64,000 nt of DNA. Origin: Gammaproteobacteria bacterium (GTDB taxonomy: Bacteria > Pseudomonadota > Gammaproteobacteria > Steroidobacterales > Steroidobacteraceae). The stretch is from contig JAYVYN010000024.1 in assembly GCA_043784265.1 (NCBI GenBank), forward strand, positions 2,621-66,620, in the 5' to 3' direction. Position 1 is the first letter of the stretch. Each line of letters starts with the position of its first letter. The translations under genes were made by a program, and so were the position numbers. Of this stretch, positions 1 to 54,780 are shown one piece after another. Below the pieces are notes generated by a model. The model was not told the origin of the DNA. It did not search any database and worked only from the letters and a program-made list of their open reading frames with translations.

Positions 1-495
1 CCGGAAGGTAAGACCATGTGCGGGCTATGTTCGCGTCTCAGGCGTGGCGCCTTGTACCGATTTGCTTCCGAGAATGGCATCACTAAGATTGCTCTGGGTC
101 ATCATCGGGATGACATGATTGAAACACTATTTTTGAACATGTTTTTTGGCGGAAAGCTCAAGGCCATGCCGCCGAAACTTCTCAGCGAAGATCGGCGTCA
201 CATTGTGATTCGCCCGCTTGCCTATGTTCCTGAAAGTTTGATTTCTCGTTATGCAATGGCGCGCGCCTTTCCGATTATTCCTTGCACCTTGTGCGGTTCC
301 CAAGACAATATGCAGCGCGTTGCAGTGAAGAATATGTTGCGGGAATGGGAGCTTAAATTTCCGGGCCGCATGGAGTCTATATTTTCGAGTATTTGTAACG
401 TGGCTGGATCGCAGCTAGCCGATGCCAGTCTGTTTGATTTTGCGGGCCTTGATGCCATGCAGGTGGTGCCTCAGCCGTTGGAGACTTGCACCTGA
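1..495 (+). CDS. ttcA: tRNA 2-thiocytidine synthetase TtcA, C-terminal part (5' end lies outside the window)
   Basis: Frame is open from nt 1. [27 protein letters not shown] and PCTLCGSQ match the E. coli TtcA core and Cys cluster. Confidence 0.85.
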
Positions 496-24889: not shown

Positions 24890-24996
24890 ATGGATGAAGG
24901 TGATGCTCGAGGAGATTTCGCGCAAGGAAACAGAAAGTAACCAGGCGCAAATCGAAGAGCGGCTGCGCGCCGCGGATGCGGAGGTACCCTCGAGTG

Positions 24997-33314: not shown

Positions 33315-34623
33315 CTAGGGAAGCGCCGGCCCCATTCGTGGAAAACTTACCTTTACCTTAGCGCCTCCCTCAATGCCCGATTCAAGGTTCACGGTGCCTG
33401 AATGCAGCTGGGTGATTCTAAGCATTAGTGCAAGCCCCAGGCCGGCACCTTCAAAATATTTGTCTTCCTCTGGCCCCCGAAAGAATCGATGAAAGGCGCG
33501 GGCTGCGGTTTCCGTGGTGAACCCAGGGCCATCGTCCAGCACTGCAAGGGTTATGGACTGATCGGTGTGCCCAATCTCTACGCAAATCCGCGCGCGCGTG
33601 TCGTATGGCGTTGCTCAATAAATGGCGCAGCAGAATTGCCAGCGCTTCTTGGTCACCGGGCACAGTTTCTTGGTCACCCGTGCACAGTTTCTTGGTCACC
33701 CGTGCAGCGAACGTCAATATTGCGTTCACGCGTCGAAGTGACGAACTCCCCTATCACTAATTCCGCCAGATGCTTGAGTTGCACGCGACCGTGACTTATC
33801 TGCACGCTGGTGTTGGCGTCAAAGCGTGCCAAGGTTAGGACCGAATCCACCATTTGAGCAGCATCGCACTTAAGGGATTGCGCAGTTCATGGGCGGCATC
33901 AGCCGTGAGGGCGCGCTCACGAATTAATGAGTCATGCACTCGGTGAGTTAGGCGATTCACTGCTTCGGATATCGACAGTAGTTCGGGTGGTAATCCCGAT
34001 CCATCGACCGGTTTCTCCGCCTCAGGTGTGAGTGAGTCGAGGGCCTTCGCGTAGCCAAAAATAGGCGCGGTAGTCTTACGCGCGATCCACGCGATCGCCG
34101 CGAATAACGCTACCATCATGGCGGCACCCGGTGCCATCAGTCGCAAGGCGCTCGAATTTGCGAGCGCCGCTCGACGGGACATTGGCTGTGCAACATGTAT
34201 GGTGGCGGCATCGAGTTGCAAGGCTAGTGTGTATACGCGGTATTGTTTGCCGCCGATGGTTGCATAGCCAAAGCCCCGATCATGTGCGCCCGCTAGTGGC
34301 GCCACCGGGGCGCCATGAGAACGAAAAACCAAAATGCCATTCGGCCCTCGTACCTGATAAACGATATCGCTTTGGCAGTTTTGATCAATCACGGCTAGTT
34401 CTAAACCAATGCCATTTTTGGTTTCGTTGAGTTCTGATATTTCGTTACGCACCACCGCAAGTACAGCGTTCGCGGTATTATCGAGAGCATCATCAAAGAG
34501 CCGGTCTGAGGTTAAAACTGCGGCGCTATACAGCCAAAAACTACTGGCACACCATGCGAGGAGAGTAGCGGTTCCAATTACCAGCGTGAGTCGATTCAAT
34601 AAGGACCAACGGGGAGCGTTCAC
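33315..34623 (-). pseudogene. Sensor histidine kinase pseudogene (QseC/PmrB-like architecture), with at least three lesions
   Basis: The sensor/transmembrane part and H-box AHELRNPLSA are in one frame. The DHp helix 2 (MVDSVLTLARFD) is in a second frame after an internal deletion. The N-box LLRHLLSNAIRHA is in another frame, behind a 22-bp tandem triplication. DDGPGF...GAGLGLAL is again shifted. Confidence 0.85.
33646..33710. repeat. About 22-bp direct tandem repeat, three copies (TTCTTGGTCACCCGTGCACAGT)
   Basis: Copies at 33646-33666 (21 nt, one mismatch), 33667-33688 and 33689-~33709. The unit is not a multiple of 3 and it introduces a TGA in the kinase frame. Confidence 0.9.
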
Positions 34624-34632
34624 CGACTAGGC

Positions 34633-35150
34633 TCAACTAGCCCAGTGATACAGCGCCTCTTCAATGCGCGCGCGTGAGACCATATCTCCTGCCCGGCGCG
34701 AGGACACCGAGAACTGCAAATTCCTGGGCGGTTAGGCTAATCGGTTGGCCGCGCAGCATGACTGAAGCGCCCAGGGAGTCAATGGTTAAAATGCCCAGGA
34801 CATGTAAACCATTGGTGCGCACTCCTTGGCGCCGGTCAATGGCTCTAAGACGAGCCGCAAGTTCTTCTAGGTCTGTCGGCTTGACCCTGTAGTCGCCTGC
34901 CCCGGCGTCCAATCCTGCGATTCGATCATCAATCCGACCACGCGCAGTTACGATGAGGATTGCTGCCGTCCGGCAGCCCTAAGTCAACTATCACCGCGTC
35001 ATAGGGGGTCATTTCGGCGCTTGGACTCAGCCACGCCGCGTGAGCGGCAGATGCTGTTTGTACCCAATCGGTGGCGTGCTGATCTTGGGCTAATCCGGCT
35101 TTCAAGGCGCGACCCACCATGGCGTCATCTTCGATGAGGAGTAGCCGCAT
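34633..35150 (-). pseudogene. OmpR-family response regulator pseudogene
   Basis: MRLLLIEDD...VIVDLGLPDGS jumps out of frame to ILIVTARG..GLDAGAGDY, which is an internal deletion. A further frameshift follows in the winged helix (EFAVL.. / RAGDMVSRARIEEALY). The last ~35 codons are missing. Confidence 0.85.
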
Positions 35151-35161
35151 AGTGAATTGAG

Positions 35162-35467
35162 TTAGAACTGGTACTCGACTTGAAAGCGCAAAGTTCGGTC
35201 TGGCGAGTGCCCCGTGGTACCGAAAAGTAACGCTGCGTTATAGGAGAGTGATTTAGGTCCAGAAATTGGCACGTGACCGAGCAGCACGGGTCCAACTCGG
35301 TGGAGCTGGTCAGGATAGTTGCCAATTTGCTTGGTTTTGGTGCCAAATTTTCCAAAGGCTTGAATTCCGAATTCAAGTGATGCGCTGTATCGATATTTGA
35401 GCTGGCTTTGATAACTGAGCTCCACGCTTGGACGGGTCGAGTCCGCGAAATGATGGTCGAACAGCAA
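35162..35467 (-). pseudogene. C-terminal remnant of an outer-membrane beta-barrel gene
   Basis: Ends in an OMP-type signature (RFQVEYQF). There is no signal peptide or N-terminal part. It lies in the same frame directly behind the stop of the upstream ORF. Confidence 0.45.
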
Positions 35468-35500
35468 ATTTAGGTTTGCCTCAATTCTCCCAATGTCCCG

Positions 35501-35827
35501 TCACGCCCATGCCGGACCATTGCCATCGGCTCGATCCTCACTCTGATATAAATAGCGCCCGGCGCTTAAAGGCCCGATGTATAGAGTGATTCGGCTATTC
35601 GGCGGAATATGCTTCTCGCGATTGAGCGAATAACTTTCGAATTCCTCCGCAGTAGCGCCCTGATTTTCGACCGTATTCCGCACCTTCTCAGCGGTTGGAA
35701 TGCTGAGCACTGCGGGGACGAATTCCCGGTTTTTGACCAGGATTAAAAACTCGGGTTCAGCGGCGAATGCGGGCACCATCATGCAGATGAGCAAACTCAC
35801 GAGCCGCTTGCTATACATAAGTTTCAT
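35501..35827 (-). CDS. Cupredoxin-like (EfeO Cup-domain type) periplasmic protein, C-terminus possibly altered
   Basis: Signal peptide and VENQGATAEEFESYSLNREK...IGPLSAGRY, as in small cupredoxin-domain proteins. The last ~17 aa are atypical. Confidence 0.5.
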   Translation of the reverse strand: MKLMYSKRLVSLLICMMVPAFAAEPEFLILVKNREFVPAVLSIPTAEKVRNTVENQGATAEEFESYSLNREKHIPPNSRITLYIGPLSAGRYLYQSEDRADGNGPAWA

Positions 35828-35847: not shown

Positions 35848-37971
35848 TTACTCAGCATCGTCGGAGTTGCGGTCTTGCGAAGATCTCTTTGGTACTCCAA
35901 AGGAGTAAGTTACCCCAATGTAGGCAACCCTACCCACTTGAGCACGACTATAAGTATCCGTCAATTCGGGAGTTACCACATAGCGGCGCAATACCTGACC
36001 GTTAAAGAGATCAACGACGGTAAATGCCGCTGTCCATTGGTCTGAGAGCGTGCGGCGATAGCCTATATTGACCAAGTTGATCGCATCAATATAGCCCTGC
36101 GGGGTTAGGCGTTTAGCCGAGTGATTAATGGACAGTTGCAGGGTGTCAACTCCGTTGGGGCGATAATCCAAGTTCGCCTTGGCATTTACGCCGGTAGTGG
36201 ACTTGAGTCCTGGTGTCCCCAGCGCGGGTAGGTCGAGTTGACGGTAGAAAAAATTCGCACTCAGGCCGTAAGACCATTGGTGCACCGGATGAGCGCTGGC
36301 AATTAGCTCTAAGCCCTCGGACTTATCGCTTGGCAAGTTCGCTTGGGTAATTAATACCACGGTGCCGCTTAGTGGCTGCGATAGGTCGGTGACGCTATTT
36401 TGGTTGTGGTGTACGTAGCCGGCTAATTCCAAATTGAAGCGTTTGGATTCCCGTGCATAGCCGAGTTCCAATGCGCGCGTGTCTTCTGGGAGTAGGGTGG
36501 GATTGCCGACGCGTAGGTTTTGGATGTCGCGTTGGTCAATAAAGGGGTCGAGTACCTGTGGGTCTGGACGGGTCACCCGACGGCTAACGCTCAACGAAAT
36601 TGTTGCCTCTGAGGAGATGCGGCGCTCAACGCGGAGATTTGGATATGCCCCGCTATATTGGTTGTTCAGGGTGTTGTAAGTGCGCTCTAGCCGCAGCCCC
36701 GCCAGAAAGTTCCACAGCAAGTGGCTTGATTCGTAACTGCTATACAAGGAATGGATAGTTTGCACGTAATTAAACTGATTAATAATGCTGGGATTGGGAA
36801 AAATTTGACCCGAAAGGGGATCAATTCGGCCGCCGCCGTTAGCGAGCCTATTATTAGCTCGCTCGAAGTCGTAACCCATCTTTATTTGGATTATGCGGCT
36901 CAGTGGCAAAACATAGTCGGCGCTTAGCTCAGTAATGTCGTTGACAGTGTTAAAACTCAAGTTATCAGAGTTCGACGCTGCGACTGGCAAATTATATGTA
37001 TTAAAGTAATTAAAGGCCTCCTCACGGTGCATCCGTGAGTGACGAGCAGCCAAACTAAGTGACTCGTCCGGACGCGAGAAATCTTGGGTAAATTGCAGCT
37101 TCTGCTCGCTGTCCGCACGTCGCTCAATGCCCGCGCCCGAGCGACTGGTTTGAGTGAGCGTCGTGCCATCGACTAGTTGACTCTGCTCGAGTTGTGAAAA
37201 ATTCTTGGTGCCGTGGCGTTCGCGAAGACTTGCCGAAAAATCTACCGATTGATGCTCGTTAAGCCGATAACCGGCCGCCCCCTTGATTGACGGCATGAGG
37301 CGACGCACATCCTGATTGATACTGGACTGGCTGAGGATATTTAGACCAGATGCAAGTTCGGCCGTAGAGCGAATGTCATTGATGGGGCGCTGGCGATAGT
37401 CCTGACGTAGTCCAACACCGCCTGAAAAATTTATTGGCCCGTTGTTATAGCTGCCATTAGTGGCCATTTGGTAGCGATGTTCATTACCGATGCTTACGCG
37501 CGCCGAACCGGCGGTACCGGGTCGGCGGCTTTTCTTAGTGATAATGTTGATTATGCCCGCTCCGCCATTGGCTTTGAATTCCGGCGGTGGGTTGGTCATC
37601 ACTTCAACGCGATCGATTTCTGCGGCTGACAGTTGTTGGAGACCATCGCCCGCCGAGGAACCTGAGAATAGTGCCGATGGTTTACCGTCCACTAGAATCG
37701 TGACGTTAGTATCGCCCCTAAGACTTACCGCGCCGTCCGCATCCACTTCCACGGAGGGAATTTCATTGAGAATGTCTGCGGCAGTGCCAGTGTTGCTTTG
37801 AATGTTGGTCGTAACGTCAGAAATTCGCCGATTCTTAAGTTGTGACACCGCGCTTTTATGAGCGGTAACCACAACCTCGGGTAGAACGTTCTCCTCACTG
37901 TCACTTGACTGGGCCATGACCGTGCCGGCTGCCGCACAGATTCCGCCTAGCAAGAACGCTATTTGTTTCAA
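35848..37971 (-). CDS. TonB-dependent outer-membrane receptor
   Basis: Signal peptide, TonB box LPEVVVTA, plug (LRGDTNVTILVDGKP), and a long beta-barrel with a YSFG block near the C-terminus. Confidence 0.85.
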   Translation of the reverse strand: MKQIAFLLGGICAAAGTVMAQSSDSEENVLPEVVVTAHKSAVSQLKNRRISDVTTNIQSNTGTAADILNEIPSVEVDADGAVSLRGDTNVTILVDGKPSALFSGSSAGDGLQQLSAAEIDRVEVMTNPPPEFKANGGAGIINIITKKSRRPGTAGSARVSIGNEHRYQMATNGSYNNGPINFSGGVGLRQDYRQRPINDIRSTAELASGLNILSQSSINQDVRRLMPSIKGAAGYRLNEHQSVDFSASLRERHGTKNFSQLEQSQLVDGTTLTQTSRSGAGIERRADSEQKLQFTQDFSRPDESLSLAARHSRMHREEAFNYFNTYNLPVAASNSDNLSFNTVNDITELSADYVLPLSRIIQIKMGYDFERANNRLANGGGRIDPLSGQIFPNPSIINQFNYVQTIHSLYSSYESSHLLWNFLAGLRLERTYNTLNNQYSGAYPNLRVERRISSEATISLSVSRRVTRPDPQVLDPFIDQRDIQNLRVGNPTLLPEDTRALELGYARESKRFNLELAGYVHHNQNSVTDLSQPLSGTVVLITQANLPSDKSEGLELIASAHPVHQWSYGLSANFFYRQLDLPALGTPGLKSTTGVNAKANLDYRPNGVDTLQLSINHSAKRLTPQGYIDAINLVNIGYRRTLSDQWTAAFTVVDLFNGQVLRRYVVTPELTDTYSRAQVGRVAYIGVTYSFGVPKRSSQDRNSDDAE

Positions 37972-38600
37972 GAGACCAATGACGCGTTTTCGAGGATTGG
38001 ATCAGTAGCGCCCTCACTTGAGCGTAAGGTGAACGCACGCATTGATCCTGGTGGCACTTCGATGTGGCGATACGTGGGCCTTGGCTCGCTGCAGTCTTGA
38101 ACGGCCAAGCGGATTAGGCCGGTATGGGTCACGAGCAGCGTGGTGAATCCCGCCTGGCCTGTCGATTGCGCGAGATCACGTAGTACAGCGCGTAGTCTAT
38201 TGCGTGCCTCCTGTAGCGTCTCGCCACCGGGAAAGCGCACCGTGTCAGGCTCGGTTTTCCAGGTTTGTAATATTGCGGGCCAATAACGTTTCACCTCAAC
38301 CTGGGTCAGACCTTCCCAGGTGCCAAAGTTAACTTCGGTCAGGCGCGAGTCGATTTTAATGAGGTGAATAGCGAGTTTGTGAGCAATGATCTGCGCTGTT
38401 TCTTGCGCCCGCAGCAGCGGGCTGGTAATGATTGAGCGAATCCCACGGCCCAATAATTGGCTGGCCAGAGTGGCACATTCGAGTTTGCCGATCTCGCACA
38501 GTGGCGGGTCACTGTGCCCTTGATAGCGGCCGGCCAAGTTCCAGGCTGTCTGACCATGGCGCGCTAGAATCAGAGTTCGTTCGAGGGCTAGATTATTCAT
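37968..38600 (-). CDS. Histidine phosphatase family protein (phosphoglycerate-mutase-like)
   Basis: RHGQTAWN catalytic motif and a second His in LLVTHTG. The stop overlaps the receptor start by 4 nt. Confidence 0.85.
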   Translation of the reverse strand: MNNLALERTLILARHGQTAWNLAGRYQGHSDPPLCEIGKLECATLASQLLGRGIRSIITSPLLRAQETAQIIAHKLAIHLIKIDSRLTEVNFGTWEGLTQVEVKRYWPAILQTWKTEPDTVRFPGGETLQEARNRLRAVLRDLAQSTGQAGFTTLLVTHTGLIRLAVQDCSEPRPTYRHIEVPPGSMRAFTLRSSEGATDPILENASLVS

Positions 38601-40422
38601 TGACTAATCTAAGGGCAGGACGTTCCGGATGTTCACGGGAGGCACGCCACAGGGAGGCGTAAACTGCGCCGCTCGCGAGTAGTTCGGTGTGCCGGCCCCG
38701 TTCTATCACACGCCCCTTTTCAAGCACCAAAATTAAATCTGCATTCATAACAGTGGTCAACCGGTGGGCGATTACTATGGTAGTGCGATTCACCGCGAGC
38801 TGGCGCAAGGCGCGCATTAGGCGATGCTCGGTGGTAGCGTCTAGGCTGCTACTCGGTTCGTCGAGAATTATGATCGGTGCGACACCCAGCATTGCTCGGG
38901 CCACCGCGATACATTGGCGTTGGCCTCCGGAGAGATTTTTACCCCCTTCGGCAATTTGGGTATTAATGCCACCGGGTAGACGTTCGAATACATCGTCAAC
39001 CCCAATAGCACGTGCTGCCGCAATGGCGTCTGCACGCCGTGCCCCCGCCCTGCCATAGGCGATGTTCTCCCAAATGCTCGCGCGAAATAATAGCGGCTCT
39101 TGTGATACGAGGGCTATGTGTTGACGCAGGTACGCAAGGGGCAGCGTACTGATATCGCGTCCGTCCAAAAAAATATTACCCTGGGTCGGATTATAGAAGC
39201 GGGGAATTAAACTGGCGAGAGTGCTTTTGCCGGATCCAGTTTGGCCCACCAGCGCCACCGTTGCGCCTGGTTCTATCAGCGCCGAAATATCATGGAGGAT
39301 TGGCGCGTCAGGCTGGTAGCCGAAGCTGACATTTTTGATTCTAAGATGGCCGGAGCAACTGGTGGGGACTAGCGGCCGGACACATTCCACTACGCTAGGC
39401 CGCTCCGCTCGGCATTCGCCGATACGTTCCAGTGCAATAATCGAGCGACCGAATACGCGCCCGGTTTTCGCCAATTGGCGTGCCGGCGCCGCCATTGCGG
39501 CTAGGTAGGCCAGAAAAATTAAGAGCTCGCCGGGGGTGAGATTGCCCTGAATGACCGTATTAGCGCCATACCATGCAATCAATCCGGTGGCAGCGGCAAT
39601 GGCGAGGCTGATGACGGGGCCGAATTGAGCCTGAATCTCGTTAGCGGCCATATTCTCTGCTACGCTTTTTTCCGCGCTTGCTCGATAACGAGTTTCCTCA
39701 TAGTCCTCACGGACAAAAGCTTGTACGACCTGCACATTGCGCAATACCTCTTGCGCCTGAGCGGCCAGGGCGCTTTCGTGTTCACGGACGCGGCGTAACG
39801 AATTGCGCAGCCGATTCGAGTAATAGCGCGCAATAAAAATAAGTAGCGGTGCTACCACCACAGCCACAATCGCAAAGTGCCAGTCAATCAACAGCATGAC
39901 GGTTGCCATACCGAAAAGCGTCAGCGCATGGGGCATGAGGTCAATGCCGATAGCGGCAATAAAATCCTGTATTTGTCGCACGTCGTTGCCAAGCCGCTCG
40001 ATGATTTCATTGCCATGATTGCGGCGGTGAAAGTCCAGTGACAGTCTTTGCAAGTGAGCGAACAGGTCAAAGCGAATGCTCGCAACCACTCTTTGCCCCG
40101 CATTCAACAGTAGGCGGTTACCGCAATAAACTAAGAGCGCGTCTGCTAAGCCTAAGCTCAGCATTGCCAAGCTAAGAAAATTCAAAAGATCTAGTTGGTG
40201 ATGAAGGGGGTCTGGCAGAAATTGTGCGAGCCTAGGACTAAGCTTGCGTTGAAAGATAACATTGTCAATGATGCACTTGAGCGGCCAGGGCAATAGGAGC
40301 AACACTCCCGCGCGGGCCACCATCGTCATTACGCCTACGCTGAGAGCTCGCCACTCAACTAGCAAATATGACGATAGCCAACCGCGCGGCGCCGTCTGAG
40401 AGGGGGGCATATAAGGGGTCAC
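38593..40422 (-). CDS. ABC exporter, fused permease/ATPase (MsbA/NdvA-like type I half-transporter)
   Basis: Six-transmembrane-segment domain, Walker A GQTGSGKST, signature LSGGQRQ and Walker B IIILDEPSS. Confidence 0.9.
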   Translation of the reverse strand: MTPYMPPSQTAPRGWLSSYLLVEWRALSVGVMTMVARAGVLLLLPWPLKCIIDNVIFQRKLSPRLAQFLPDPLHHQLDLLNFLSLAMLSLGLADALLVYCGNRLLLNAGQRVVASIRFDLFAHLQRLSLDFHRRNHGNEIIERLGNDVRQIQDFIAAIGIDLMPHALTLFGMATVMLLIDWHFAIVAVVVAPLLIFIARYYSNRLRNSLRRVREHESALAAQAQEVLRNVQVVQAFVREDYEETRYRASAEKSVAENMAANEIQAQFGPVISLAIAAATGLIAWYGANTVIQGNLTPGELLIFLAYLAAMAAPARQLAKTGRVFGRSIIALERIGECRAERPSVVECVRPLVPTSCSGHLRIKNVSFGYQPDAPILHDISALIEPGATVALVGQTGSGKSTLASLIPRFYNPTQGNIFLDGRDISTLPLAYLRQHIALVSQEPLLFRASIWENIAYGRAGARRADAIAAARAIGVDDVFERLPGGINTQIAEGGKNLSGGQRQCIAVARAMLGVAPIIILDEPSSSLDATTEHRLMRALRQLAVNRTTIVIAHRLTTVMNADLILVLEKGRVIERGRHTELLASGAVYASLWRASREHPERPALRLVNE

Positions 40423-41669
40423 CCGGTGCGCTCCAGAGCATTACTGCTGGGAACTAATTCGAGTATCTTCGCGACGGTGGCGGTCCAGCTTCGCGTGCTG
40501 GCGGAATTACGCGCCGCTACACTCATCTTTTGGCGTAGTAGTTGATCGTCAATCAAGGTCGACAGCGCTAATACTAGATCATTGGCATCACCCGCTTCAA
40601 ACAAGAGGCCGGTTTTGCCGTCGGCCACGAGTTCCGGAATTTGCCCAATGCGGGGTGCGATAACAGGACGACCGGCAGCTAATGATTCGACAATCTTCAT
40701 GGGTGAGAAGTAGAAATCGGGCTGCGGTAGATAAGGGGCTACCGTCAGATCCATGGCGGCCAACCAAGTAGGAATATCGGCATGCGCTACTCGACCGGGG
40801 AGCAGTACTTTATCCACTAAGTCCGCTTCGCTGGCGCGCGCACGCGCTAGCGCAAGTTCTGGACCGTCGCCGACCGCCAGTAGCCTTAAGTTGGGACGGT
40901 GAGTCGCCACAGCCGCAAAAACGTCTAGCAATAGCGTCACCCCATGCCACGGCTTGAAGCTGCCGATAAATCCCACCACCGGGCCAGTAGTTGGCGCGAA
41001 TGGGTGTGGAATAACTGTTTTGCACGCAGTCTTATTAAATGCTGCCAGGTCAACTCCGTTCGGAATCACGCGCAATTTAGTCGAGTTGCCGATAACGCTC
41101 TGCACATGGGTCGCGACCGCGTCAGAAACCGCAATGATGCCGCCCGCTGAGTGATACGAATATGCTTGCGCCGTCAGCGCGGCTTTCGCCAGCCGTAGGC
41201 CACGATATTTGGCTTGCTCATCAATGAGCGGAGCGTTGACCTCTAAAAAGCGGGGAACCCCGAGTTGCGCAGCAATGTGTACGCCTGACTGGTGGAAGAG
41301 GGCGTGTCGTTCGTACACCAAATCGGGTCGAAATTGAATCGCTGACAATTCGTGCAACAGCTGGGCTGCGAATAAACGGTCGGTTACAATTCGGTCAAGT
41401 TCGCGGCGTAGAATTGGGTCATCAAGGTCGCTAAGTGGCAAGCCTTGTGCTATACACTCAAGCGAAGTCGCAGTCCCATCAACGGCTATTTTTAGTTGAA
41501 TGAGGTGCGCCGCAGGCGCGGGGTTGCCTGCGCCTAAAGCGGTACACGCGAGTACTACTTCGTGACCAAGCGCCACCGCAGCATTAATGAATGAGCGTAC
41601 ATGTACGGAGGCGCCCTTGTCCCCTAGAACCGGTATGCCGCGATCGAAATTAATATAAAGAATTTTCAT
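40419..41669 (-). CDS. Glycosyltransferase family 4 (GT-B)
   Basis: N-terminus GDKGASVHVRSF and a C-terminal E-x7-E region (ESLAAGRPVIAPRIGQIPELV). Confidence 0.85.
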   Translation of the reverse strand: MKILYINFDRGIPVLGDKGASVHVRSFINAAVALGHEVVLACTALGAGNPAPAAHLIQLKIAVDGTATSLECIAQGLPLSDLDDPILRRELDRIVTDRLFAAQLLHELSAIQFRPDLVYERHALFHQSGVHIAAQLGVPRFLEVNAPLIDEQAKYRGLRLAKAALTAQAYSYHSAGGIIAVSDAVATHVQSVIGNSTKLRVIPNGVDLAAFNKTACKTVIPHPFAPTTGPVVGFIGSFKPWHGVTLLLDVFAAVATHRPNLRLLAVGDGPELALARARASEADLVDKVLLPGRVAHADIPTWLAAMDLTVAPYLPQPDFYFSPMKIVESLAAGRPVIAPRIGQIPELVADGKTGLLFEAGDANDLVLALSTLIDDQLLRQKMSVAARNSASTRSWTATVAKILELVPSSNALERTG

Positions 41670-42952
41670 GTGGGCCCTGCTACCGTCGCGCCAAACGGTT
41701 CACTACAGTCAGTGCATCCCATCAATGCATGCAATTTAACGGTGGTCTTCAGATAGTTAAAATCGGCCTTAAGCGTGGTGCGGGCTGACTTGGCTAATGA
41801 GGCCGCAATAGCGGGGGCGTTAAGCAACTGGGCAATGGCGGCGGCTAGTGCGGTAGCATCGTTTGGCGGCACCAGTAAGCCTGTGGACTCATGTCTGACA
41901 AGCTCAGGAATTCCAGAGACTTCCGTTGACACCACCGGCACACCAGCAGCCATAGCCTCAGCGATAACATTCGGGATACCGTCGCGATCACCATTGGCAA
42001 CGATTCGCGGCGCCAGCGCAAAAAGGTCAGCCTCACCATAAAGGTTGACTAGCTCTGCATGCGTCATAGCCCCAACTAACGAGACTACTTTCTCTACACC
42101 ACGCTTAGCGATGTCATCGGTCAGTTCCTGAAAGAGCGGACCGTCTCCCACTATTTGACAGCTAATTTCATAGCCTGAGTCGTGCAGAATCTGGCACGCC
42201 GCGATAAGATCATCATGCCCTTTCTTTGGCACCAATCGTCCCACGGATAAAATCTTAAATGCCGATTCTTTTCGGGGTACCCGCACGGGCTGGGTGTTAA
42301 ACAAGTTCAGATCAATGCCATGGTAGACCAGATGGATTTTATTTTGCTCACTCACCTCTACTAAGTCACGTAGATAGCGTGCGTTGTAGCCAGTACAGGT
42401 CGTGATAAACGTAGCGGCGCGTACCCGTTGACGGATGACGCACTTGGGCGTTAGGTATAAGTCTTTAGCATGCGCGGTTACGCTAAAAGGTATGCCGCTC
42501 ATTAGGCTGGCAAAATGCACCACGACGGCAGGGTCATTGGCGAAGTGGGCATGAATGTGCCGTATGCCCATTTTTTGACAGGCATCGGCAATAAAGCCCG
42601 CGCGCACGAACTGTTTCCAGACGCTCAGTGGTGAGCTTCCGCTGAAAGACCACAGGATGGCTTTCCCAAAAGCGGTCAAGTAGCGCAGCGGCGCTTGGCG
42701 AATGAGTGCGCAATGAGCTGTAGTTAAGGTTGCCGCCTTCGCTAACATCTGCGGCGGCAGCGCGTGCACAGTGGCCTGTACCTCATGGACCATCGGATGA
42801 TGTGGCGGCGGTTCAGGTTGGAGGAGAGAAAATATATTTATCTTAGCGCCAAGGCGCTCCATCGCCCGAATTTCATTTAGGATGAAGGTCTCGCTTAGCC
42901 GCGGATAACGCTTCATGACATAGGCTATCGGTGCTGAACTACGCGCCGTCAT
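41666..42952 (-). CDS. Glycosyltransferase family 4 (WcaL-like N-terminus)
   Basis: KRYPRLSETFILNEI N-terminus, and GIPNVIAEAMAAGVPVVSTEVSGIPELV. Confidence 0.85.
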   Translation of the reverse strand: MTARSSAPIAYVMKRYPRLSETFILNEIRAMERLGAKINIFSLLQPEPPPHHPMVHEVQATVHALPPQMLAKAATLTTAHCALIRQAPLRYLTAFGKAILWSFSGSSPLSVWKQFVRAGFIADACQKMGIRHIHAHFANDPAVVVHFASLMSGIPFSVTAHAKDLYLTPKCVIRQRVRAATFITTCTGYNARYLRDLVEVSEQNKIHLVYHGIDLNLFNTQPVRVPRKESAFKILSVGRLVPKKGHDDLIAACQILHDSGYEISCQIVGDGPLFQELTDDIAKRGVEKVVSLVGAMTHAELVNLYGEADLFALAPRIVANGDRDGIPNVIAEAMAAGVPVVSTEVSGIPELVRHESTGLLVPPNDATALAAAIAQLLNAPAIAASLAKSARTTLKADFNYLKTTVKLHALMGCTDCSEPFGATVAGPT

Positions 42953-44259
42953 GCCGCATTTTCCTGTGAGACACGCGCCATGTAGGATAAATGTTCTGCG
43001 ACGCGCTGTACACCGTTCAACTCAAGAGAAGAACCTCCATGAGTCGGTGGTGGTTCGCTGCACGCCATTAATAACTGGCCCGCCAGGTCAGCAACCAGGT
43101 TGGGGCCGGGCTCTACACTGCGAACCATCCCCAAGCGCTTTAATAACTGGGCACGAATTCGCTGCTCGGCGCGCGGTGCCGCCCGCGGCACCAGAATAGC
43201 CCGACACCGGGCCGCAACGACTTCGGCACTGGTATTGTAACCGGCCATCGCCACCACTAGAAACGCCGCCTCTAAGCTTGGTACTAAGTTGGTGGTGTGA
43301 TCGACGAGTTCGACGTCGATACGATTAGCTGCCAACAAGTGCAGCTTAGCCTTTTGGTCCTCCGCCATCAGCGGCCCGGTCACAATGACGGAGTAGTATT
43401 GGGGCGAGGGCGTCACCGGATGCGCGCGTAGGAAGGCATCCATGAGAAAAAACCCGTCGCCTCCGCCTCCGGCGGTCACCAGGATGACCGGCCGTTCGGC
43501 GGCGCGGGAGCGATTCCAGCATACAGCATCGAGGTGCCGCGACTGGGGTTGATCGTGACAATCAGCGGCCGCGACGACATAGCCGCAGTAACGTACTCGA
43601 TTGGCAATCTTGCCGGTTAGTCCATACTCCTGAGCCACGTCGATTAGGGCTTGGCTACCGTAAACTAGTATCTCATCATAGGCATGTTCGAGTAGGCTAT
43701 GAATTTCCTGTTCGAGCCAAACTGCCTTGACAACCTCTGGGCTGTCGAGAATATCGCGTAAGCCCAGCACGGTCCGCATATTCGGAAATTCGCGGCGGAT
43801 CAGGGCGAGCGTCGACAGCAACTCGCCGTTCATTCCTGCGGGCGCATGGTCCACCAGAAACACATCGGGTCGGAATCGCATGACGGTTTTCAGAATCAGC
43901 GCTTCGCGATAACCTTTTACCAGGCCAAATAACTGCCCAGCATCGCGGGCCGCATAACGCTCGGCGCCGGTTTTGACCACGGGCGGTAGTGATTGGACCG
44001 AGAGACCCTCCGGCAAGGCCCATTGCCTAATGACAGGCGAGCCTGTTAACAGGCACACGGAGAACTGATTTGAGTGGTTGAGTAAGCCCGTGGCAATAGC
44101 CAAGTTTCGTCGCAGGTGTCCGAGACCAAAGGTATCGTGCGAATACAAGAGGACTTTGATTTTTCCATTCGAGTCAGGGCTCGTGTCGCCAAAATCAGAC
44201 GCCCAGCTTATTGCGCGATCGGTTCCGTTGCTCGCCGTACTTTCCAGAACTTTATACAT
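42949..44259 (-). CDS. Predicted GT-B glycosyltransferase (MurG/GT28-like, COG4671-type as recalled)
   Basis: VLLYSHDTFGLGHLRRNLAIA N-terminus and C-terminal MAGYNTSAEV. First gene of the overlapped operon. Confidence 0.6.
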   Translation of the reverse strand: MYKVLESTASNGTDRAISWASDFGDTSPDSNGKIKVLLYSHDTFGLGHLRRNLAIATGLLNHSNQFSVCLLTGSPVIRQWALPEGLSVQSLPPVVKTGAERYAARDAGQLFGLVKGYREALILKTVMRFRPDVFLVDHAPAGMNGELLSTLALIRREFPNMRTVLGLRDILDSPEVVKAVWLEQEIHSLLEHAYDEILVYGSQALIDVAQEYGLTGKIANRVRYCGYVVAAADCHDQPQSRHLDAVCWNRSRAAERPVILVTAGGGGDGFFLMDAFLRAHPVTPSPQYYSVIVTGPLMAEDQKAKLHLLAANRIDVELVDHTTNLVPSLEAAFLVVAMAGYNTSAEVVAARCRAILVPRAAPRAEQRIRAQLLKRLGMVRSVEPGPNLVADLAGQLLMACSEPPPTHGGSSLELNGVQRVAEHLSYMARVSQENAA

Positions 44260-44513
44260 CTGAATGCCTCCGTTTTATCTCAACCTTTTGCGCCGTCCAG
44301 TAGCTGAGACTGTTTAGCAGTTGATAATCAATCGCCAAATACTTGCCAAGGTTCATTACGCCAGTGCAGCAAGCACCGTATGGCGTTACCGCATGTGACT
44401 AAGATGAATGACACCTTAATAAAAAAATAAAATTATCAGGGGTACTTATTGACGAATTCTGGGTGGCTTTTGTACTAGGCTAAGAAGGCGTTGTACTTTT
44501 ATCGAGAATTTTT

Positions 44514-45842
44514 ATGAAGCTCACAATTATTGGCAGCGGCTATGTTGGTCTGGTCACGGGTGCGTGTCTCGCAGATGTTGGAAACGATGTACTGTGTATT
44601 GATGTCAATCTCGAAAAGATTGCGCAGTTAAACGCTGGACAGGTCCCTATTCACGAACCAGGTCTAAGTGAGGTCGTAGCCAGAAATCGTGCGGCCGGTC
44701 GGATGGAGTTTACTGCTGACTATGAACGCGCGGTCGCGCATGCTGATCTATTCGTCATTGCGGTTGGCACGCCTACCGATGAGGATGGCTCCGCAGATAT
44801 ACGCCATGTCGAGGCGGCCGCCCGTGAATTAGGTCGACGCCTAATTCGACAGTCTTTGGTGGTGATTAAATCAACGGTACCCGTAGGAACTCACGAGATT
44901 GTGGCGCATGCCATTAAGGAAGAGCTTGCTAAACGGCAGTTGCAAATTCATGTTGCGGTTGCCTCAAATCCAGAATTTCTAAAAGAGGGTGCGGCAGTCG
45001 CGGATTTCATGCAGCCGGATCGAATTGTCATTGGTACCGATGATGCGGAAGCGATCCGTACCTTAACAACGTTGTACGCTCCCTTCAATCGTAAACGCGA
45101 CCGTCTGATGGTGCTGGATGCCAGATCGTCGGAACTGTCTAAGTATGCGGCCAATGCCATGTTGGCGACGCGCATTTCCTTCATGAATGAACTGGCGCGA
45201 CTCGCTGAGAAACTGGGTGCAGATATTGAGAGCGTGCGTCATGCCATGGGTGCAGATCCGCGTATTGGTCCGAGCTTTCTCTATGCCGGCGCAGGTTACG
45301 GTGGTTCATGCTTCCCAAAAGATGTGCGCGCACTTTTGGCAATGGCACGGGAGCATATGTTGCCCGCCAGATTGTTGTCAGCAGTGCATGAAGTCAATGA
45401 AGAGCAGAAACACATATTGACGCAAAAGCTTAGAGCGGCACTTGATGGAAACCTGCGTGATCAGGTGATCGCTGTTTGGGGCATCACCTTTAAGCCAAAT
45501 ACCGATGATGTCCGCGAAGCGTCCAGTTTGGTACTCATTAGAAATACGGTAGCAGCCGGCGCCCTGATTCAGGCGTACGACCCGGAGGGTATGGCCATGG
45601 CGAGGGTGGCGCTCGCTGATTTACAGGGCAAGGTAGTGTTTTGCAAGACTGCTGAAGAGGCCTGTGTAGGCGCTGATGCGTTAGTGGTGGTCACCGAGTG
45701 GTTGGAGTTTCGCAGTCCAGATTTTAATTGGCTTGCTGGCCAGTTGCGCGCTCGCGTGCTAATCGACGGACGTAACCTTTATGACCCAACGGTAGCGCGT
45801 AGTGCGGGGTTACACTATGTCGGGATAGGCCGCAGTGTATAA
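44514..45842 (+). CDS. ugd: UDP-glucose 6-dehydrogenase
   Basis: MKLTIIGSGYVGLVTGACLA, GGSCFPKD catalytic Cys, and length ~440 aa. Confidence 0.92.
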   Translation: MKLTIIGSGYVGLVTGACLADVGNDVLCIDVNLEKIAQLNAGQVPIHEPGLSEVVARNRAAGRMEFTADYERAVAHADLFVIAVGTPTDEDGSADIRHVEAAARELGRRLIRQSLVVIKSTVPVGTHEIVAHAIKEELAKRQLQIHVAVASNPEFLKEGAAVADFMQPDRIVIGTDDAEAIRTLTTLYAPFNRKRDRLMVLDARSSELSKYAANAMLATRISFMNELARLAEKLGADIESVRHAMGADPRIGPSFLYAGAGYGGSCFPKDVRALLAMAREHMLPARLLSAVHEVNEEQKHILTQKLRAALDGNLRDQVIAVWGITFKPNTDDVREASSLVLIRNTVAAGALIQAYDPEGMAMARVALADLQGKVVFCKTAEEACVGADALVVVTEWLEFRSPDFNWLAGQLRARVLIDGRNLYDPTVARSAGLHYVGIGRSV

Positions 45843-52364: not shown

Positions 52365-54668
52365 ATGGGAAGGAATCGCCGACCGATATTGTCAGCCGTA
52401 TATTTGTTATGGACTCTAGTTGTTGCGCCATGCAACACCCACGGGCAAGTTCTAACTATTCGAATCACCGCCGGGACACCCGTCGCGAAGGCGTTGCAGC
52501 AGCTCGAGCGGCCCGAGTTTCGGATAATTTTTAGTACGGCTCTGGTGGATCAGCGAATGCGGGTTAAAACCGCCCCGCGGTCGAATCAACCGGTAGCGAT
52601 GGCAGAGGAAATTCTGGAAGCCTTTGGCTTGACCTTGCGTGAAATAGCACCGTCGCAGTTCGCCGTGGTCCGCGCTGCGAAAGCGCCGGCATCCGTACCT
52701 GCCTCGCTGACAACGGTCTTAGACGAGATCACCGTTACCGCGAGCTTCTATCAATTGCATGGCTCCGCCAATACGCCTGTCGAACTTGAGGGAGCGGAAT
52801 TACGCACTCAACCGCAACTAGTCGACGATGCGCTTCAGTCGGTGCAACACATCCCCGGGGTCGCGCAAAGTGGATTTCCTGGCCAAGCCCATATTCGCGG
52901 TGGTGAGGCTAATGAGACCCGAGTCTTGCTGGACGGTTTTCCGATCCGCGAAGTGTTCCATCTACCCGATTATCAAGGGCCGTTTAGCGCATTGGATTCG
53001 TCTGCCGTTAAGCACATCGATGTCTATACCGGCGGTTTTTCAGCCCGTTTTGGCGGGCGTATGAGCGGCATATTGGATATTCAATCGAGAGACGTCACGG
53101 AAGCGCCTCAGAACATGATGGGGATCAGCACGGTAAATTCCAGTGCGCGGGTGGCGGGTCAAATCGATTCGCGCGGCGATCTCGACGGTCTACTGATAGG
53201 TCGATTGAGCAATATTCAAAAAATATCAGAGGCGGTTGTGCTTGAGGCGCACGCACCCACATTTTCGGACGCGCTCGGCAAGCTGCGTTGGCATCTTGCA
53301 GACGGCACCACGCTATCCCTGCACAGTCTGATTTTTCAAGATGCGCATGACAACATTGACAGGGACACCGGCAAGACTGGGCATACTGATAGCCGCACTC
53401 GTTATGCGTGGATCCATGCCGAGCAGAGCTTGGGCGAGCGCTGGCAATACGATGCTTGGCTTGGCAATAGTGCTCTGGCGTCTGATCGGGATGGAGCGGT
53501 GAATAATCTCGGTGTTGCCGTTGGCCAAGTGCTCGACAATCGCCGTGCGGACATATGGGATGCGAGTCTGCGTTTTCATGGCCAGCTTGGGGGGGCGCAT
53601 GAGCTTGAGTGGGGTGGTGAATGGACCGCAAGCGGCGCGAACTATAACTATCAGAGTAGTGTTAATTTCAGCGCGGAAATTGCCGCTCTATTTGGACGAA
53701 CACAGAATGTGGTAAAAAACGCCGTGTTTTCGGTGCGTGGCAATAACACTGCACTGTATTTGACAGATCGTTGGCAGGTAACTCAGAAACTATTCGCTGA
53801 AATTGGTGTTCGGGCGCAACGCTACGCGGGTCTCGGACTCAATACCTACCTTTCGCAAGATCCCCGTGTGTCACTATCGTTTGCGCCAAATTCCTCAACC
53901 CAGATTTTTGCGAGCTGGGGAATTTTTCACCAAGCCGATGAAGTACTGGACCTCGATGTCATTAATGGCGTGCAAAAATTTTCGAGTCCGCAATATTCAA
54001 GACATTTTATTGTTGGTTTGCAATATCACACTGCCGATGGGATTTCATATCGAGCGGAAGCGTATCGAAAGATTCAAGGGTTGCCACGACCGCGCTATGA
54101 GAGTCTTCTTGATCCGCTCAGCATCTTGCCCGAATTCTCGCCGGACCGAGTGTTGGTTGCACCTTCACATGCCGAGCTTCATGGCGTCGAATTGTCGACC
54201 CTCTGGCTTAAAGGCCCACTAAGTACTCGACTGTCATATACTTGGTCGCAGGCGTATGACGATATTAAGGGTATCGAAGTGCCGCGTGCTTGGAATCAGA
54301 ACAATGCGTTAAGTGCGATGTTGCAGTGGCATGAAGGGTCGTGGGCTGCCAGCGCCGCCCTTGGGATTCACGATGGATGGCCCAGCACGCCCTTATTGAC
54401 CTTGCCCAATGGCATCAACACATTGGGTGTGAGAAATTCTGGTAAAGAAGCCCGCTATCAATCGCTGGACCTAAGAATAGCTTACATCCAGCCTGTCAGG
54501 CGCGGTGCACTGCAGTTTACGGCGGATGCAGGCAACGTCTTAAATCACAACAATCATTGCTGTTTGGAGTTTATAGCGCCGCAGGGTGCGAATGGAGCAT
54601 TGCTGTTTAAGGATTCCTCGACGTGGTTGCCACGAATCATAGTGTTGGGTGTACGTTGGGACTTTTAA
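52365..54668 (+). CDS. TonB-dependent receptor with a possible N-terminal STN/signalling-type extension
   Basis: Plug motifs (IRGGEANETRVLLDGFPI), a long barrel and a terminal GVRWDF. The N-terminal ~100 aa resemble an STN domain. Confidence 0.8.
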   Translation: MGRNRRPILSAVYLLWTLVVAPCNTHGQVLTIRITAGTPVAKALQQLERPEFRIIFSTALVDQRMRVKTAPRSNQPVAMAEEILEAFGLTLREIAPSQFAVVRAAKAPASVPASLTTVLDEITVTASFYQLHGSANTPVELEGAELRTQPQLVDDALQSVQHIPGVAQSGFPGQAHIRGGEANETRVLLDGFPIREVFHLPDYQGPFSALDSSAVKHIDVYTGGFSARFGGRMSGILDIQSRDVTEAPQNMMGISTVNSSARVAGQIDSRGDLDGLLIGRLSNIQKISEAVVLEAHAPTFSDALGKLRWHLADGTTLSLHSLIFQDAHDNIDRDTGKTGHTDSRTRYAWIHAEQSLGERWQYDAWLGNSALASDRDGAVNNLGVAVGQVLDNRRADIWDASLRFHGQLGGAHELEWGGEWTASGANYNYQSSVNFSAEIAALFGRTQNVVKNAVFSVRGNNTALYLTDRWQVTQKLFAEIGVRAQRYAGLGLNTYLSQDPRVSLSFAPNSSTQIFASWGIFHQADEVLDLDVINGVQKFSSPQYSRHFIVGLQYHTADGISYRAEAYRKIQGLPRPRYESLLDPLSILPEFSPDRVLVAPSHAELHGVELSTLWLKGPLSTRLSYTWSQAYDDIKGIEVPRAWNQNNALSAMLQWHEGSWAASAALGIHDGWPSTPLLTLPNGINTLGVRNSGKEARYQSLDLRIAYIQPVRRGALQFTADAGNVLNHNNHCCLEFIAPQGANGALLFKDSSTWLPRIIVLGVRWDF

Positions 54669-54780
54669 AGGTGGGATTCGTCGCGCCGCACCCCCTGCGC
54701 CGACAGGCTGAACTCCAACGCGATTGATTGCGGCGAGCAATAGCGTCTAATAAAGAAGTTAAGATCTTGGAGAATCGATT

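Follow-up and report, generated by a model that had tools for sequence, protein, structure and literature searches.

A widespread glycosyltransferase, exporter and phosphatase cassette beside ugd in Proteobacteria and its clade-specific TonB-dependent receptor

What does an operon make that joins three glycosyltransferases, an MsbA-like exporter and a histidine phosphatase to a TonB-dependent receptor (TBDR)? Such an operon occupies positions 35848–44259, minus strand, of a 64,000-nucleotide stretch of a Steroidobacteraceae contig (JAYVYN010000024.1; the whole stretch is referred to here as the window) and lies divergent from ugd, which encodes UDP-glucose 6-dehydrogenase. An earlier note on this DNA had read the six genes and ugd as one coupled unit for a small, possibly glucuronate-containing glycoconjugate that would be dephosphorylated, exported and perhaps re-imported or sensed through the receptor. 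Our analysis partly supported that interpretation. The first five genes of the operon together with ugd are one copy of a widespread, as yet undescribed cassette that seems to have been transferred horizontally, whereas the TBDR is a clade-specific addition.

The open reading frame (ORF) table of the window contains the six minus-strand genes at exactly the coordinates given earlier, and the Pfam and NCBIfam profile scans on which the identities of the window proteins are based confirmed the domain assignments, including those of the glycosyltransferases. In order, the genes encode a GT28-like glycosyltransferase of the GT-B type (GT28L, 42949–44259; Pfam Glyco_tran_28_C), an EpsE/WcaL-like GT4 glycosyltransferase (GT4a, 41666–42952; Glycos_transf_1, 128 bits), a second GT4 glycosyltransferase (GT4b, 40419–41669; Glyco_trans_1_4 and Glyco_transf_4), an exporter of the ABCB/MsbA half-transporter type (ABC, 38593–40422; ABC_membrane and ABC_tran), a cytoplasmic histidine phosphatase of branch 1 (HisP, 37968–38600; His_Phos_1) and a TBDR of the OMP_b-brl_3 type (35848–37971; Plug, TonB_dep_Rec_b-barrel and OMP_b-brl_3). 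Successive genes overlap by 4 nt (GT28L/GT4a and GT4a/GT4b, both ATGA; GT4b/ABC, GTGA), 8 nt (ABC/HisP, ATGAATAA) and 4 nt (HisP/TBDR, TTGA). The TBDR gene is followed after 20 nt by a minus-strand gene for a periplasmic cupredoxin-like protein (35501–35827; Cupredoxin_1, 65 bits, and a signal peptide), ahead of which lies an AAGGAG ribosome-binding site. On the other side, ugd (44514–45842, plus strand; three UDPG_MGDP_dh domains) is separated from GT28L by a divergent, AT-rich promoter spacer of 254 bp (44260–44513) with a GC content of 41%, compared with 53% for the whole window. The overlaps, the 20-nt gap and the spacer all agreed with the earlier description.

A scan of one genome per species yielded 70 loci, onto which the window genes were mapped by tblastn; co-occurrence was taken from these alignments since antisense ORFs in GC-rich loci confused ORF clustering. 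Counts refer to the 44 loci with enough flanking DNA. GT28L, GT4a and ABC were present in all 44, GT4b in 42, HisP in 37 and ugd, in or beside the cassette, in 34; an additional gene, here designated X, was present in 35. The modal order, GT28L-GT4a-GT4b-ABC-X-HisP-Ugd, was found in 22 loci. The TBDR was found in a single one. The three glycosyltransferases, the exporter, the phosphatase and ugd are thus a real unit under selection, and to that extent the proposed coupling stood; its extension to the TBDR did not. The window itself carries GT28L, GT4a, GT4b, ABC and HisP colinearly with ugd adjacent, at 57–83% identity to its clade relatives. The loci belong to alpha-, beta- and gammaproteobacteria, with hosts among Acidiphilium, Acidocella, Rhodanobacter, Lysobacter, Steroidobacteraceae, Nevskiaceae, Burkholderiales and Caulobacterales, and many of the carriers are acidophiles or metagenome-assembled genomes (MAGs) from mine sites. 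At least 4388 homologs of GT28L were found, with Steroidobacteraceae, Rhodanobacter, Oleiagrimonas, Acidiphilium, Acidocella, Rhodocyclaceae and Sphingomicrobium among their named sources; the best 120 are 57–72% identical to it, and this degree of identity across proteobacterial classes suggests lateral spread of the cassette.

Genes of the classical polysaccharide routes were looked for at three levels. The operon and the flanking genes covered (28–58 kb) contain no Wzx/Wzy/Wza, chain-length or priming-transferase domain, as the earlier note had maintained for the locus, and those flanks consist of housekeeping genes (RhlB, Rho, an MscS-type channel, a SuhB-like phosphatase and others) with no classical polysaccharide export or polymerisation gene among them. 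Neither the window nor its 44 relatives contain a polymerase, Wzx/Wzy, Wza/Wzc, an ABC-2 transporter (Wzm/Wzt or KpsMT), a GT2 synthase or a priming transferase, and such genes were also absent among the recurrent neighbour clusters of the 70 loci. Membership of a Wzx/Wzy, ABC-2 or synthase-dependent pathway was therefore rejected. Searches of the literature for COG4671, for the gene-name combinations, for Rhodanobacter fitness data and for rhizobial cNMP/Clr clusters found no description of the cassette, and nothing that we found in Pfam, NCBIfam or the literature identifies the glycosyltransferase-exporter-phosphatase-ugd unit as a described pathway, in agreement with the earlier note.

The folds and nearest relatives of the enzymes were then compared. 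GT28L matched Glyco_tran_28_C with 28.6 bits. Its AlphaFold2 model (pLDDT 81) has a GT-B fold, for which Foldseek ranked the GT1/GT28 clan best at TM 0.5–0.6; the nearest folds are the inverting enzymes OleD, plant UGTs, GtfA, CalG1 and MurG. Whereas OleD, plant UGTs, GtfA and CalG1 glycosylate small aglycones, MurG acts on lipid I. GT28L was ruled out as MurG itself by the murG model (19 bits, cut-off 250). The invariant motifs GLGHLRR, DHAPAGM, GGGxDG and MAGYNTSxE would fit an active nucleotide-sugar transferase. Searches of PDB sequences with GT28L, with the TBDR, and with X and a second barrel protein, Y, described below, gave nothing informative. GT4a belongs to the GT4 superfamily but was rejected as an equivalog of EpsE (217 bits, cut-off 400) or WcaL (136 bits, cut-off 538) in NCBIfam; its nearest solved relatives are BshA, PimB' and sucrose-phosphate synthase (SPS). 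GT4b (Glyco_trans_1_4, 102 bits; Glyco_transf_4, 55 bits; Glycos_transf_1, 93 bits) is nearest to PimA, MshA and BshA. BshA, MshA, PimA/PimB' and SPS are retaining enzymes that use small anionic, phosphorylated or lipid acceptors.

The exporter (ABC_membrane, 166 bits; ABC_tran, 103 bits) scored below cut-off with every NCBIfam model for MsbA, MsbA_rel, HepA and NdvA. It was rejected as an equivalog of the MsbA lipid A flippase (419 versus 602 bits for TIGR02203; 327 versus 867 for NF008381) and of the NdvA/ChvA cyclic glucan exporter (316 versus 733 for NF010178; 248 versus 585 for TIGR01192), and no gene for the cyclic glucan synthase Cgs/NdvB lies near the operon. The nearest PDB sequences are those of ABCB1, ABCB19, ABCB4, MsbA, Sav1866 and BmrA. 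HisP (His_Phos_1, 162 bits) has the features of branch 1 of the histidine phosphatase superfamily, namely RHG (residues 14–16) with the nucleophilic histidine, two arginines, a proton-donor glutamate and a second histidine; R14, H15, R64, E89 and H159 do not vary among 18 cassette orthologs, one of them a distant Ruegeria protein. Given that it contains neither a signal peptide nor a transmembrane segment, HisP is cytoplasmic. Its nearest PDB sequences are PspA, PhoE and GpgP (E 2e-18 for GpgP), and it is no closer to GpgP than to the other two. No operon protein reached an NCBIfam equivalog cut-off. Ugd is the exception in that, with all three UDPG_MGDP_dh domains, it exceeded the cut-off of a general nucleotide-sugar dehydrogenase subfamily model (TIGR03026, 438 bits, cut-off 190); it fell below those of the specific TuaD and AglM equivalogs, so that UDP-glucose is a putative substrate.

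X, of which no homolog occurs anywhere in the window, is a gene of approximately 280 codons whose product has a signal peptide and a C-terminal ...R-Y beta-signal. A direct scan assigned neither X nor Y to a Pfam or NCBIfam family at E<=1, and a few of the 87 X homologs found match PF13557 weakly. X was modelled as a 12-stranded barrel (pLDDT 89) closest in fold to the COG4313 channel Pput2725 (TM 0.68–0.72) and to the amyloid secretion channel FapF. COG4313 channels have been implicated in the passage of hydrophobic molecules, possibly by lateral opening (PMC4493636). Some loci that lack X have another candidate in its place. A divergent MFP-RND-RND-OMF efflux operon adjoins the cassette in L002, L051, L052 and L054, and in L010 a cupredoxin gene stands beside the cassette together with the barrel Y (259 aa), which direct comparison showed to be unrelated to X. 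Full-length copies of Y are present in L001, L010 and L077, and the cupredoxin gene recurs near the cassette in L001, L010, L041, L046 and L077.

More distant variants extend this picture. Plasmids of approximately 225 kb in 18 of 5426 complete E. coli genomes carry a variant that is colinear over GT28L, GT4a, GT4b and ABC at 30–36% identity and that adds two APH-family kinases, an Alginate_exp barrel and a nucleotide-sugar dehydrogenase. One example is L071 (plasmid NZ_CP012499, 27186–37340), the others being 17 further E. coli plasmids; these IncF plasmids are from isolates of cattle, beef and lettuce, the variant bears generic annotation only, and it adjoins F4 fimbrial genes and a gene for an S6 peptidase. 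Variants in Ruegeria and in Rhizobium/Sinorhizobium combine GT28L and GT4a with a histidine phosphatase, which Ruegeria retains, or with an ABC exporter, and Opp-type importers adjoin them. Cytoplasmic synthesis, an ABC exporter and some device for outer-membrane crossing or entry are the recurring theme over these variants.

The window TBDR has the signal peptide, TonB box, plug and barrel domain that define 22-strand TonB-dependent receptors. It starts at TTG, a start that is required because only then is the signal peptide (MKQIAFLLGGICAAAGTVMA) included; P0121 (689 aa), a public call of the gene, begins further downstream and so lacks it. In the TonB-box-like sequence PEVVVTA, the residues VTA are nearly invariant in 40 relatives. 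The protein was rejected as a FecA-type transducer, given that no more than about 15 residues lie between its signal peptide and its TonB box and that no FecR or sigma gene is found nearby. At its other end, it runs approximately 16 residues beyond the terminal aromatic beta-signal (...GVTYSF-GVPKRSSQDRNSDDAE; C-terminus at 35848–35900). A set of 40 relatives conserves a similar tail (consensus ...FGAxKKxKxxGFDYD), an unusual feature for outer-membrane barrels.

The six closest relatives of the TBDR (57–60% identity) lie on contigs equal in length to those that carry the closest GT28L relatives, the contigs shared by P0122–P0127. L001 and L077 have the order GT28L-GT4a-GT4b-ABC-HisP-TBDR-cupredoxin-Y-RR-HK (RR, response regulator; HK, histidine kinase) with ugd divergent, and L077 in addition has an epimerase gene. 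In these two loci HisP and TBDR are separated by 90–260 bp rather than overlapping, and the ten genes of L077 all lie on one strand with short gaps. L078 has the order ABC (C-terminus)-HisP-epimerase-TBDR, with a TBDR that is 45% identical and without the cupredoxin and two-component genes. The epimerase gene adjoins ugd or HisP in L077 and L078. The public call at 916–4032 of L078 fuses a UDP-glucuronate 4-epimerase to the TBDR in one frame of 1038 aa without a stop, probably as an artefact of sequencing or gene calling, since fusion of a cytoplasmic enzyme to a barrel is implausible. L010 carries the cassette with the cupredoxin, Y, RR and HK genes and without a TBDR. TBDR relatives at 53% and 48% identity adjoin RR-HK pairs, the former beside a CzcB-type RND system. 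Viewed from the receptor, the linkage again failed to generalise: none of 80 metagenome loci of TBDR relatives (25–46% identity), which were found with an alignment query after a scan with the TBDR alone had given no matches, contained the cassette, and approximately 12 had an adjacent OmpR-type regulator. Linkage was seen only in the window's Nevskiaceae/Steroidobacteraceae-like clade (L001, L077 and the P0122–P0127 contigs) and in L078. This loss of linkage beyond the clade and the usual company of two-component systems indicate that the TBDR is not a core component but was acquired by the clade from a module that as a rule includes a two-component system.

A different receptor stands at the head of other loci. 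At 5738–9724 of L047, genes for an ECF sigma factor, a FecR-like anti-sigma factor and a TBDR of approximately 770 aa immediately precede GT28L on its strand, and a similar set occurs at L013, L025, L026, L030, L033, L034, L037, L066 and L069. This TBDR has about 100 extra N-terminal residues and is unrelated to that of the window, and X is still present. The set is a cell-surface-signalling system ahead of the cassette. Given its conserved TonB box, the TBDR of the window's clade most plausibly functions in uptake or sensing; it most likely takes up or senses the product, perhaps in a metal-bound form, rather than exporting it. Circumstantial support for re-import or sensing is provided by the ECF/FecR/TBDR set, by the Opp-type importers and by the operator-like box described next.

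The spacer between ugd and GT28L contains a box of the form TTAAG-N5-RTTMAK, a direct repeat (TTAAGGTGTCATTCAT), at 44404–44419 on the minus strand. The window has two matches (0.17 expected), the other of which (TTAAGGTGTAGTTCAT, 15787–15802, plus strand) lies inside an arginine decarboxylase gene (14789–16717, minus strand) and probably arose by chance. The 2.16 Mb of DNA that were fetched contain 14 exact matches, most of them in the comparable places given below, compared with 5.0 ± 2.4 in shuffles. The box is common to the ugd/GT28L spacers of the window, L001 (9825–9840) and L077 (3249–3264), the copy at the operon head being the only one found in L077. It also occurs in the RR/cupredoxin spacer of L041 (20489–20504), in the RR/TBDR spacers of L084 (2857–2872), L088 (592–607) and L090 (9826–9841 and 9878–9893), where L084 and L090 have oppositely oriented pairs, and upstream of the TBDR in L086 (4234–4249); L010 has a one-mismatch copy with the operon cupredoxin-Y-ugd downstream. 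With up to one mismatch, 5 of 22 loci have the box ahead of the regulator gene, where about 0.02 would be expected per region. It is missing from the alphaproteobacterial RR-HK pairs that precede the cassette, so that it is specific to one subfamily of two-component systems.

The box resembles what we take to be the PmrA/BasR consensus, YTTAAK-N5-YTTAAK, and the neighbouring kinase is QseC/PmrB/heavy-metal-sensor-like, at scores far below those NCBIfam cut-offs. The adjacent family of response regulators probably uses the box as its operator. One type of regulator would then be common to ugd, the cupredoxin-Y pair and this family of TBDRs, and in the window's clade the promoter region at the head of the cassette would belong to the same putative regulon. 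The box overlaps a predicted -35 element of ugd and may control ugd, the long operon or both. In the window the regulator genes themselves are broken. Beyond the cupredoxin gene, tblastn with the L010 proteins located, all on the minus strand, the C-terminal 110 or so amino acids of Y (35162–35500), matching only residues 148–259 of the 259-aa protein, and frameshifted remnants of an OmpR-type response regulator (34642–35159) and a PmrB/QseC-like histidine kinase (33333–34623). RR and HK each lie in three separate pieces or frames, with a longest open HK frame of 262 aa compared with 453 aa in relatives, and both are intact in L001, L010 and L077. The broken state of Y, RR and HK reflects either gene decay or an assembly error.

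The reading that we favour, and to which we give about an even chance, is that the cassette makes a short uronic-acid glycoconjugate in the cytoplasm by way of a phosphorylated intermediate, exports it through ABC and passes it across the outer membrane by variable means. Ugd would supply UDP-glucuronate, and in relatives with the epimerase UDP-galacturonate as well. Three soluble GT-B transferases, GT28L inverting and the two GT4 enzymes retaining, would add about three sugars to an acceptor in the cytoplasm. One intermediate would bear a phosphate, to be removed by the cytoplasmic HisP, and the ABCB-type half-transporter would then carry the finished short anionic glycoconjugate over the inner membrane. 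Passage across or insertion into the outer membrane would fall to an interchangeable partner: the X barrel in most loci, the RND-OMF pump in some and the alginate-export barrel in the distant E. coli plasmid variant. In the window's clade, where X is absent, the operon would instead have become linked to a module that responds to metal or acid and comprises the TBDR, the cupredoxin, Y and a two-component system similar to PmrAB/QseBC; the spacer at the operon head carries the PmrA-like box. As the product we favour a secreted glycoside that is small and either soluble or amphiphilic, because the soluble phosphatase is conserved and because variants have an alginate-export barrel and solute importers; a glycosyltransferase with a dedicated phosphatase, followed by export, is the best-fitting logic. 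The analysis shows the order and conservation of the genes, the folds, the catalytic residues and where the box lies; the chemistry, the direction in which the outer-membrane partners transport, the function of the TBDR and the regulation are inferred from these.

Several points weigh against this reading. The action of HisP on a pathway intermediate is hypothetical, and every enzyme fell below every NCBIfam equivalog cut-off. The relatives of the enzymes and the exporter do not fix the acceptor, the donor specificity or the product, and a membrane glycolipid fits several features equally well, given that MsbA and ABCB4 are near ABC and that relatives of the PimA/PimB'/MurG type use lipid acceptors. 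Hydrophobic molecules are the proposed cargo of the COG4313 channels that X resembles (PMC4493636). The TBDR could have travelled as a passenger with the two-component module, since its distant relatives adjoin RR-HK pairs without glycosyltransferases. The box may control only ugd, because its distance to the ugd start is constant (95–113 bp) and that to GT28L is variable (145–239 bp); scans for promoters and terminators were uninformative. Finally, the loci were found by peptide patterns of a window protein, so that the counts of taxa and habitats are biased towards close relatives.

Of the alternatives, that of an incidental receptor survives best, although we put it at clearly less than an even chance. 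The TBDR would have arrived as part of a TBDR-cupredoxin-Y-RR-HK metal module and been chained to HisP only by loss of intergenic DNA, without any functional connection to the glycoconjugate. The gap of L001 and L077 in place of the overlap, the TBDR-free module of L010, the recent decay and deletion in this region of the window, and the distant TBDR relatives that adjoin RR-HK pairs, with the same box in RR/TBDR spacers, are all in keeping with such a history. The linkage in L078 weakens it: the ABC-HisP-epimerase-TBDR order kept there at 45% TBDR identity indicates that linkage has persisted over considerable divergence, and it does so where cupredoxin and two-component genes are missing. 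The compact single-strand arrangement of L077, with its sole box at the head, also counts against it.

A membrane glycolipid is a serious rival to the soluble glycoside, if a rather unlikely one. Here, a uronic-acid head group would be built on a lipid acceptor at the inner leaflet (diacylglycerol, a phosphatidyl lipid or a lipid A-core-like molecule are candidates), flipped by the MsbA-like ABC and delivered to the outer membrane by X through lateral opening or by the RND pump. Its role would be adaptation to acid or metal stress under a PmrA-like regulon, comparable to the PmrA-controlled ugd and lipopolysaccharide (LPS) remodelling of Salmonella. The best NCBIfam match of ABC is MsbA_lipidA at 419 bits, with MsbA and ABCB4 among the closest solved relatives; the GT4 enzymes resemble PimA and PimB', and GT28L is as MurG-like as it is similar to GT1 enzymes of small molecules. 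X shares the fold of COG4313 channels, with their proposed lateral passage of hydrophobic molecules (PMC4493636), and a PmrB/QseC-like kinase and a PmrA-like box accompany ugd. Acidophiles and MAGs from mine sites make up many of the carriers. At some loci, LpxB or KdtA genes are found close to the cassette, at a distance of a few kilobases; we dropped them as evidence for an LPS role, given that they differ by lineage and are not conserved even within Acidiphilium. The cassette contains no acyltransferase or lipid-synthesis gene, ABC stays below the MsbA cut-offs, and the alginate-export barrel of the E. coli variant is a channel for soluble anionic glycans; the importers beside the rhizobial variants are solute importers. 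To our knowledge, a soluble cytoplasmic histidine phosphatase is not a known type of lipid phosphatase, which also counts against a glycolipid.

An improbable alternative is that of a secreted sugar-acid metallophore, in which a small uronic-acid glycoside would bind Fe(III), Al(III) or Cu and be recaptured or sensed by the TBDR. In its favour, the TBDR is translationally chained to the cassette in the window and linked to it in L001, L077 and L078, and its conserved TonB box implies uptake or sensing. An ECF sigma/FecR/TBDR set lies directly upstream in another subclade in which X is retained, the cupredoxin and a heavy-metal-sensor-related kinase are adjacent, the 53%-identical receptor stands beside a CzcB-type RND system, and Opp-type importers flank distant variants. 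The TBDR is nevertheless missing from 43 of the 44 genome loci, and none of its 80 relatives is linked to the cassette. With two TBDRs in 64 kb, chance adjacency of a TBDR is not rare; the second (767 aa) lies 14 kb from that of the operon, followed immediately by a 652-aa DUF4382 protein and a gamma-glutamyltranspeptidase (52365–56739, plus strand). The ten ECF/FecR/TBDR loci may represent a single evolutionary event, and any chelating chemistry is hypothetical. We know of no carbohydrate metallophore of this kind. In its fullest form, which we consider slightly less probable still, the idea would make the product a sugar-acid counterpart of siderophores: a short metal-binding glucuronate or galacturonate glycoside, exported first by ABC and then by an outer-membrane channel or an RND pump, recaptured or sensed in a TonB-dependent manner and controlled by an ECF sigma factor or a PmrA-like regulator. 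If true, bacteria of acidic, metal-rich habitats would use such a counterpart.

Very improbable is a conventional exopolysaccharide (EPS) or capsule locus, or a cytoplasmic compatible-solute pathway of the glucosylglycerate or sucrose-phosphate type: GT4 enzymes with ugd are typical of EPS loci, with EpsE as the best model for GT4a, and a glycosyltransferase with a phosphatase is typical of compatible-solute synthesis, GpgP being a histidine phosphatase, but the polymerase and export genes of the former are missing from the window and its 44 relatives as described above, GpgS (GT81) is absent, and a cytoplasmic end product such as a compatible solute is hard to reconcile with an ABC exporter that is conserved throughout and with conserved outer-membrane partners.

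Elsewhere in the window, a 505-aa protein with dual-specificity phosphatase-like and ADP-ribosylglycohydrolase domains is encoded at 486–2003 (plus strand), and a 526-aa ORF at 24976–26556 (plus strand) matched nothing in Pfam at E<=1e-5. The window was also scanned for Rfam families and tRNAs, with no matches, and simple promoter and terminator scans performed no better than on shuffles.

Thousands of proteobacterial genomes and metagenome bins carry the cassette, cultured Acidiphilium and Acidocella among them, and we found no name, product or phenotype for it. Its combination of cytoplasmic glycosyltransferases, a phosphatase, an ABCB exporter and interchangeable outer-membrane partners fits no textbook route of polysaccharide export. 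Identification of the product would define a secreted glycoside or an envelope glycolipid, new in either case; a carbohydrate metallophore or a new stress-induced envelope glycolipid would be of high interest. Given its hosts and its PmrA-like and metal-sensor context, the cassette could bear on acid and metal tolerance. For experiments, the analysis provides hosts that are in culture, a minimal set of genes, and candidates for the operator and the receptor.

Among known systems, the msbA2 operon of S. meliloti (SMb21188–SMb21191) has been proposed to synthesise and export an unknown saccharide under control of the two-component system ExoS/ChvI (PMC3687685, PMC12239276). It is likewise a short operon of sugar-modifying enzymes and glycosyltransferases, with an MsbA-like ABC exporter as its last gene. 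We rejected it as a homolog: in tblastn against 930–950 kb of pSymB, where the operon lies, only the nucleotide-binding domain of MsbA2 matched ABC (38% over 198 aa), and nothing matched the three glycosyltransferases or the transmembrane domain of the exporter. The msbA2 operon also differs in starting with an acyltransferase and in lacking a phosphatase, ugd and an outer-membrane partner, and is therefore an analogue only. GpgS/GpgP, SPS with its phosphatase (SPP) and the MshA step of mycothiol synthesis share with the cassette the pairing of a glycosyltransferase with a dedicated phosphatase, and the GT4 enzymes resemble MshA, BshA and SPS. Membership of the GpgP pathway was rejected, given that neither the operon nor its relatives contain a GT81 enzyme and that GpgP, PspA and PhoE are equally close to HisP. 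The cassette differs from such pathways in its three glycosyltransferases, its conserved exporter and its outer-membrane partners, the last two of which indicate that its end product, unlike theirs, is not a cytoplasmic solute.

Siderophore loci such as those of pyoverdine (PvdE with FpvA/FpvR) and salmochelin (iroBCDEN) resemble the cassette in having an ABCB-type exporter, a separate outer-membrane exit, a TBDR and ECF-sigma/FecR or two-component regulation beside the biosynthesis genes. They differ in that the cassette has no NRPS or NIS enzyme, would have a carbohydrate scaffold with hypothetical metal binding, and is accompanied by a TBDR in some lineages only. PmrA/PmrB of Salmonella and E. 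coli senses acid and metals and activates ugd (pmrE) and envelope remodelling (arn, pmrG/ais), where Ais/PmrG is a periplasmic enzyme of the histidine phosphatase family. The window's clade resembles this regulon in its PmrB/QseC-like kinase and in a box about 100 bp from ugd that is similar to what we presume to be the PmrA consensus; it differs in having no arn or eptA, a cytoplasmic rather than a periplasmic phosphatase and a kinase far below the PmrB and QseC cut-offs. The typical cassette, though not the window, encodes in X a barrel with the 12-stranded fold of COG4313 and FapF channels, whose known members import hydrophobic molecules or secrete amyloid subunits and are not known to be linked to glycosyltransferases. 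Compared with all of these, the cassette is an uncharacterised, widespread variant of ABC-exporter-dependent glycoconjugate systems.

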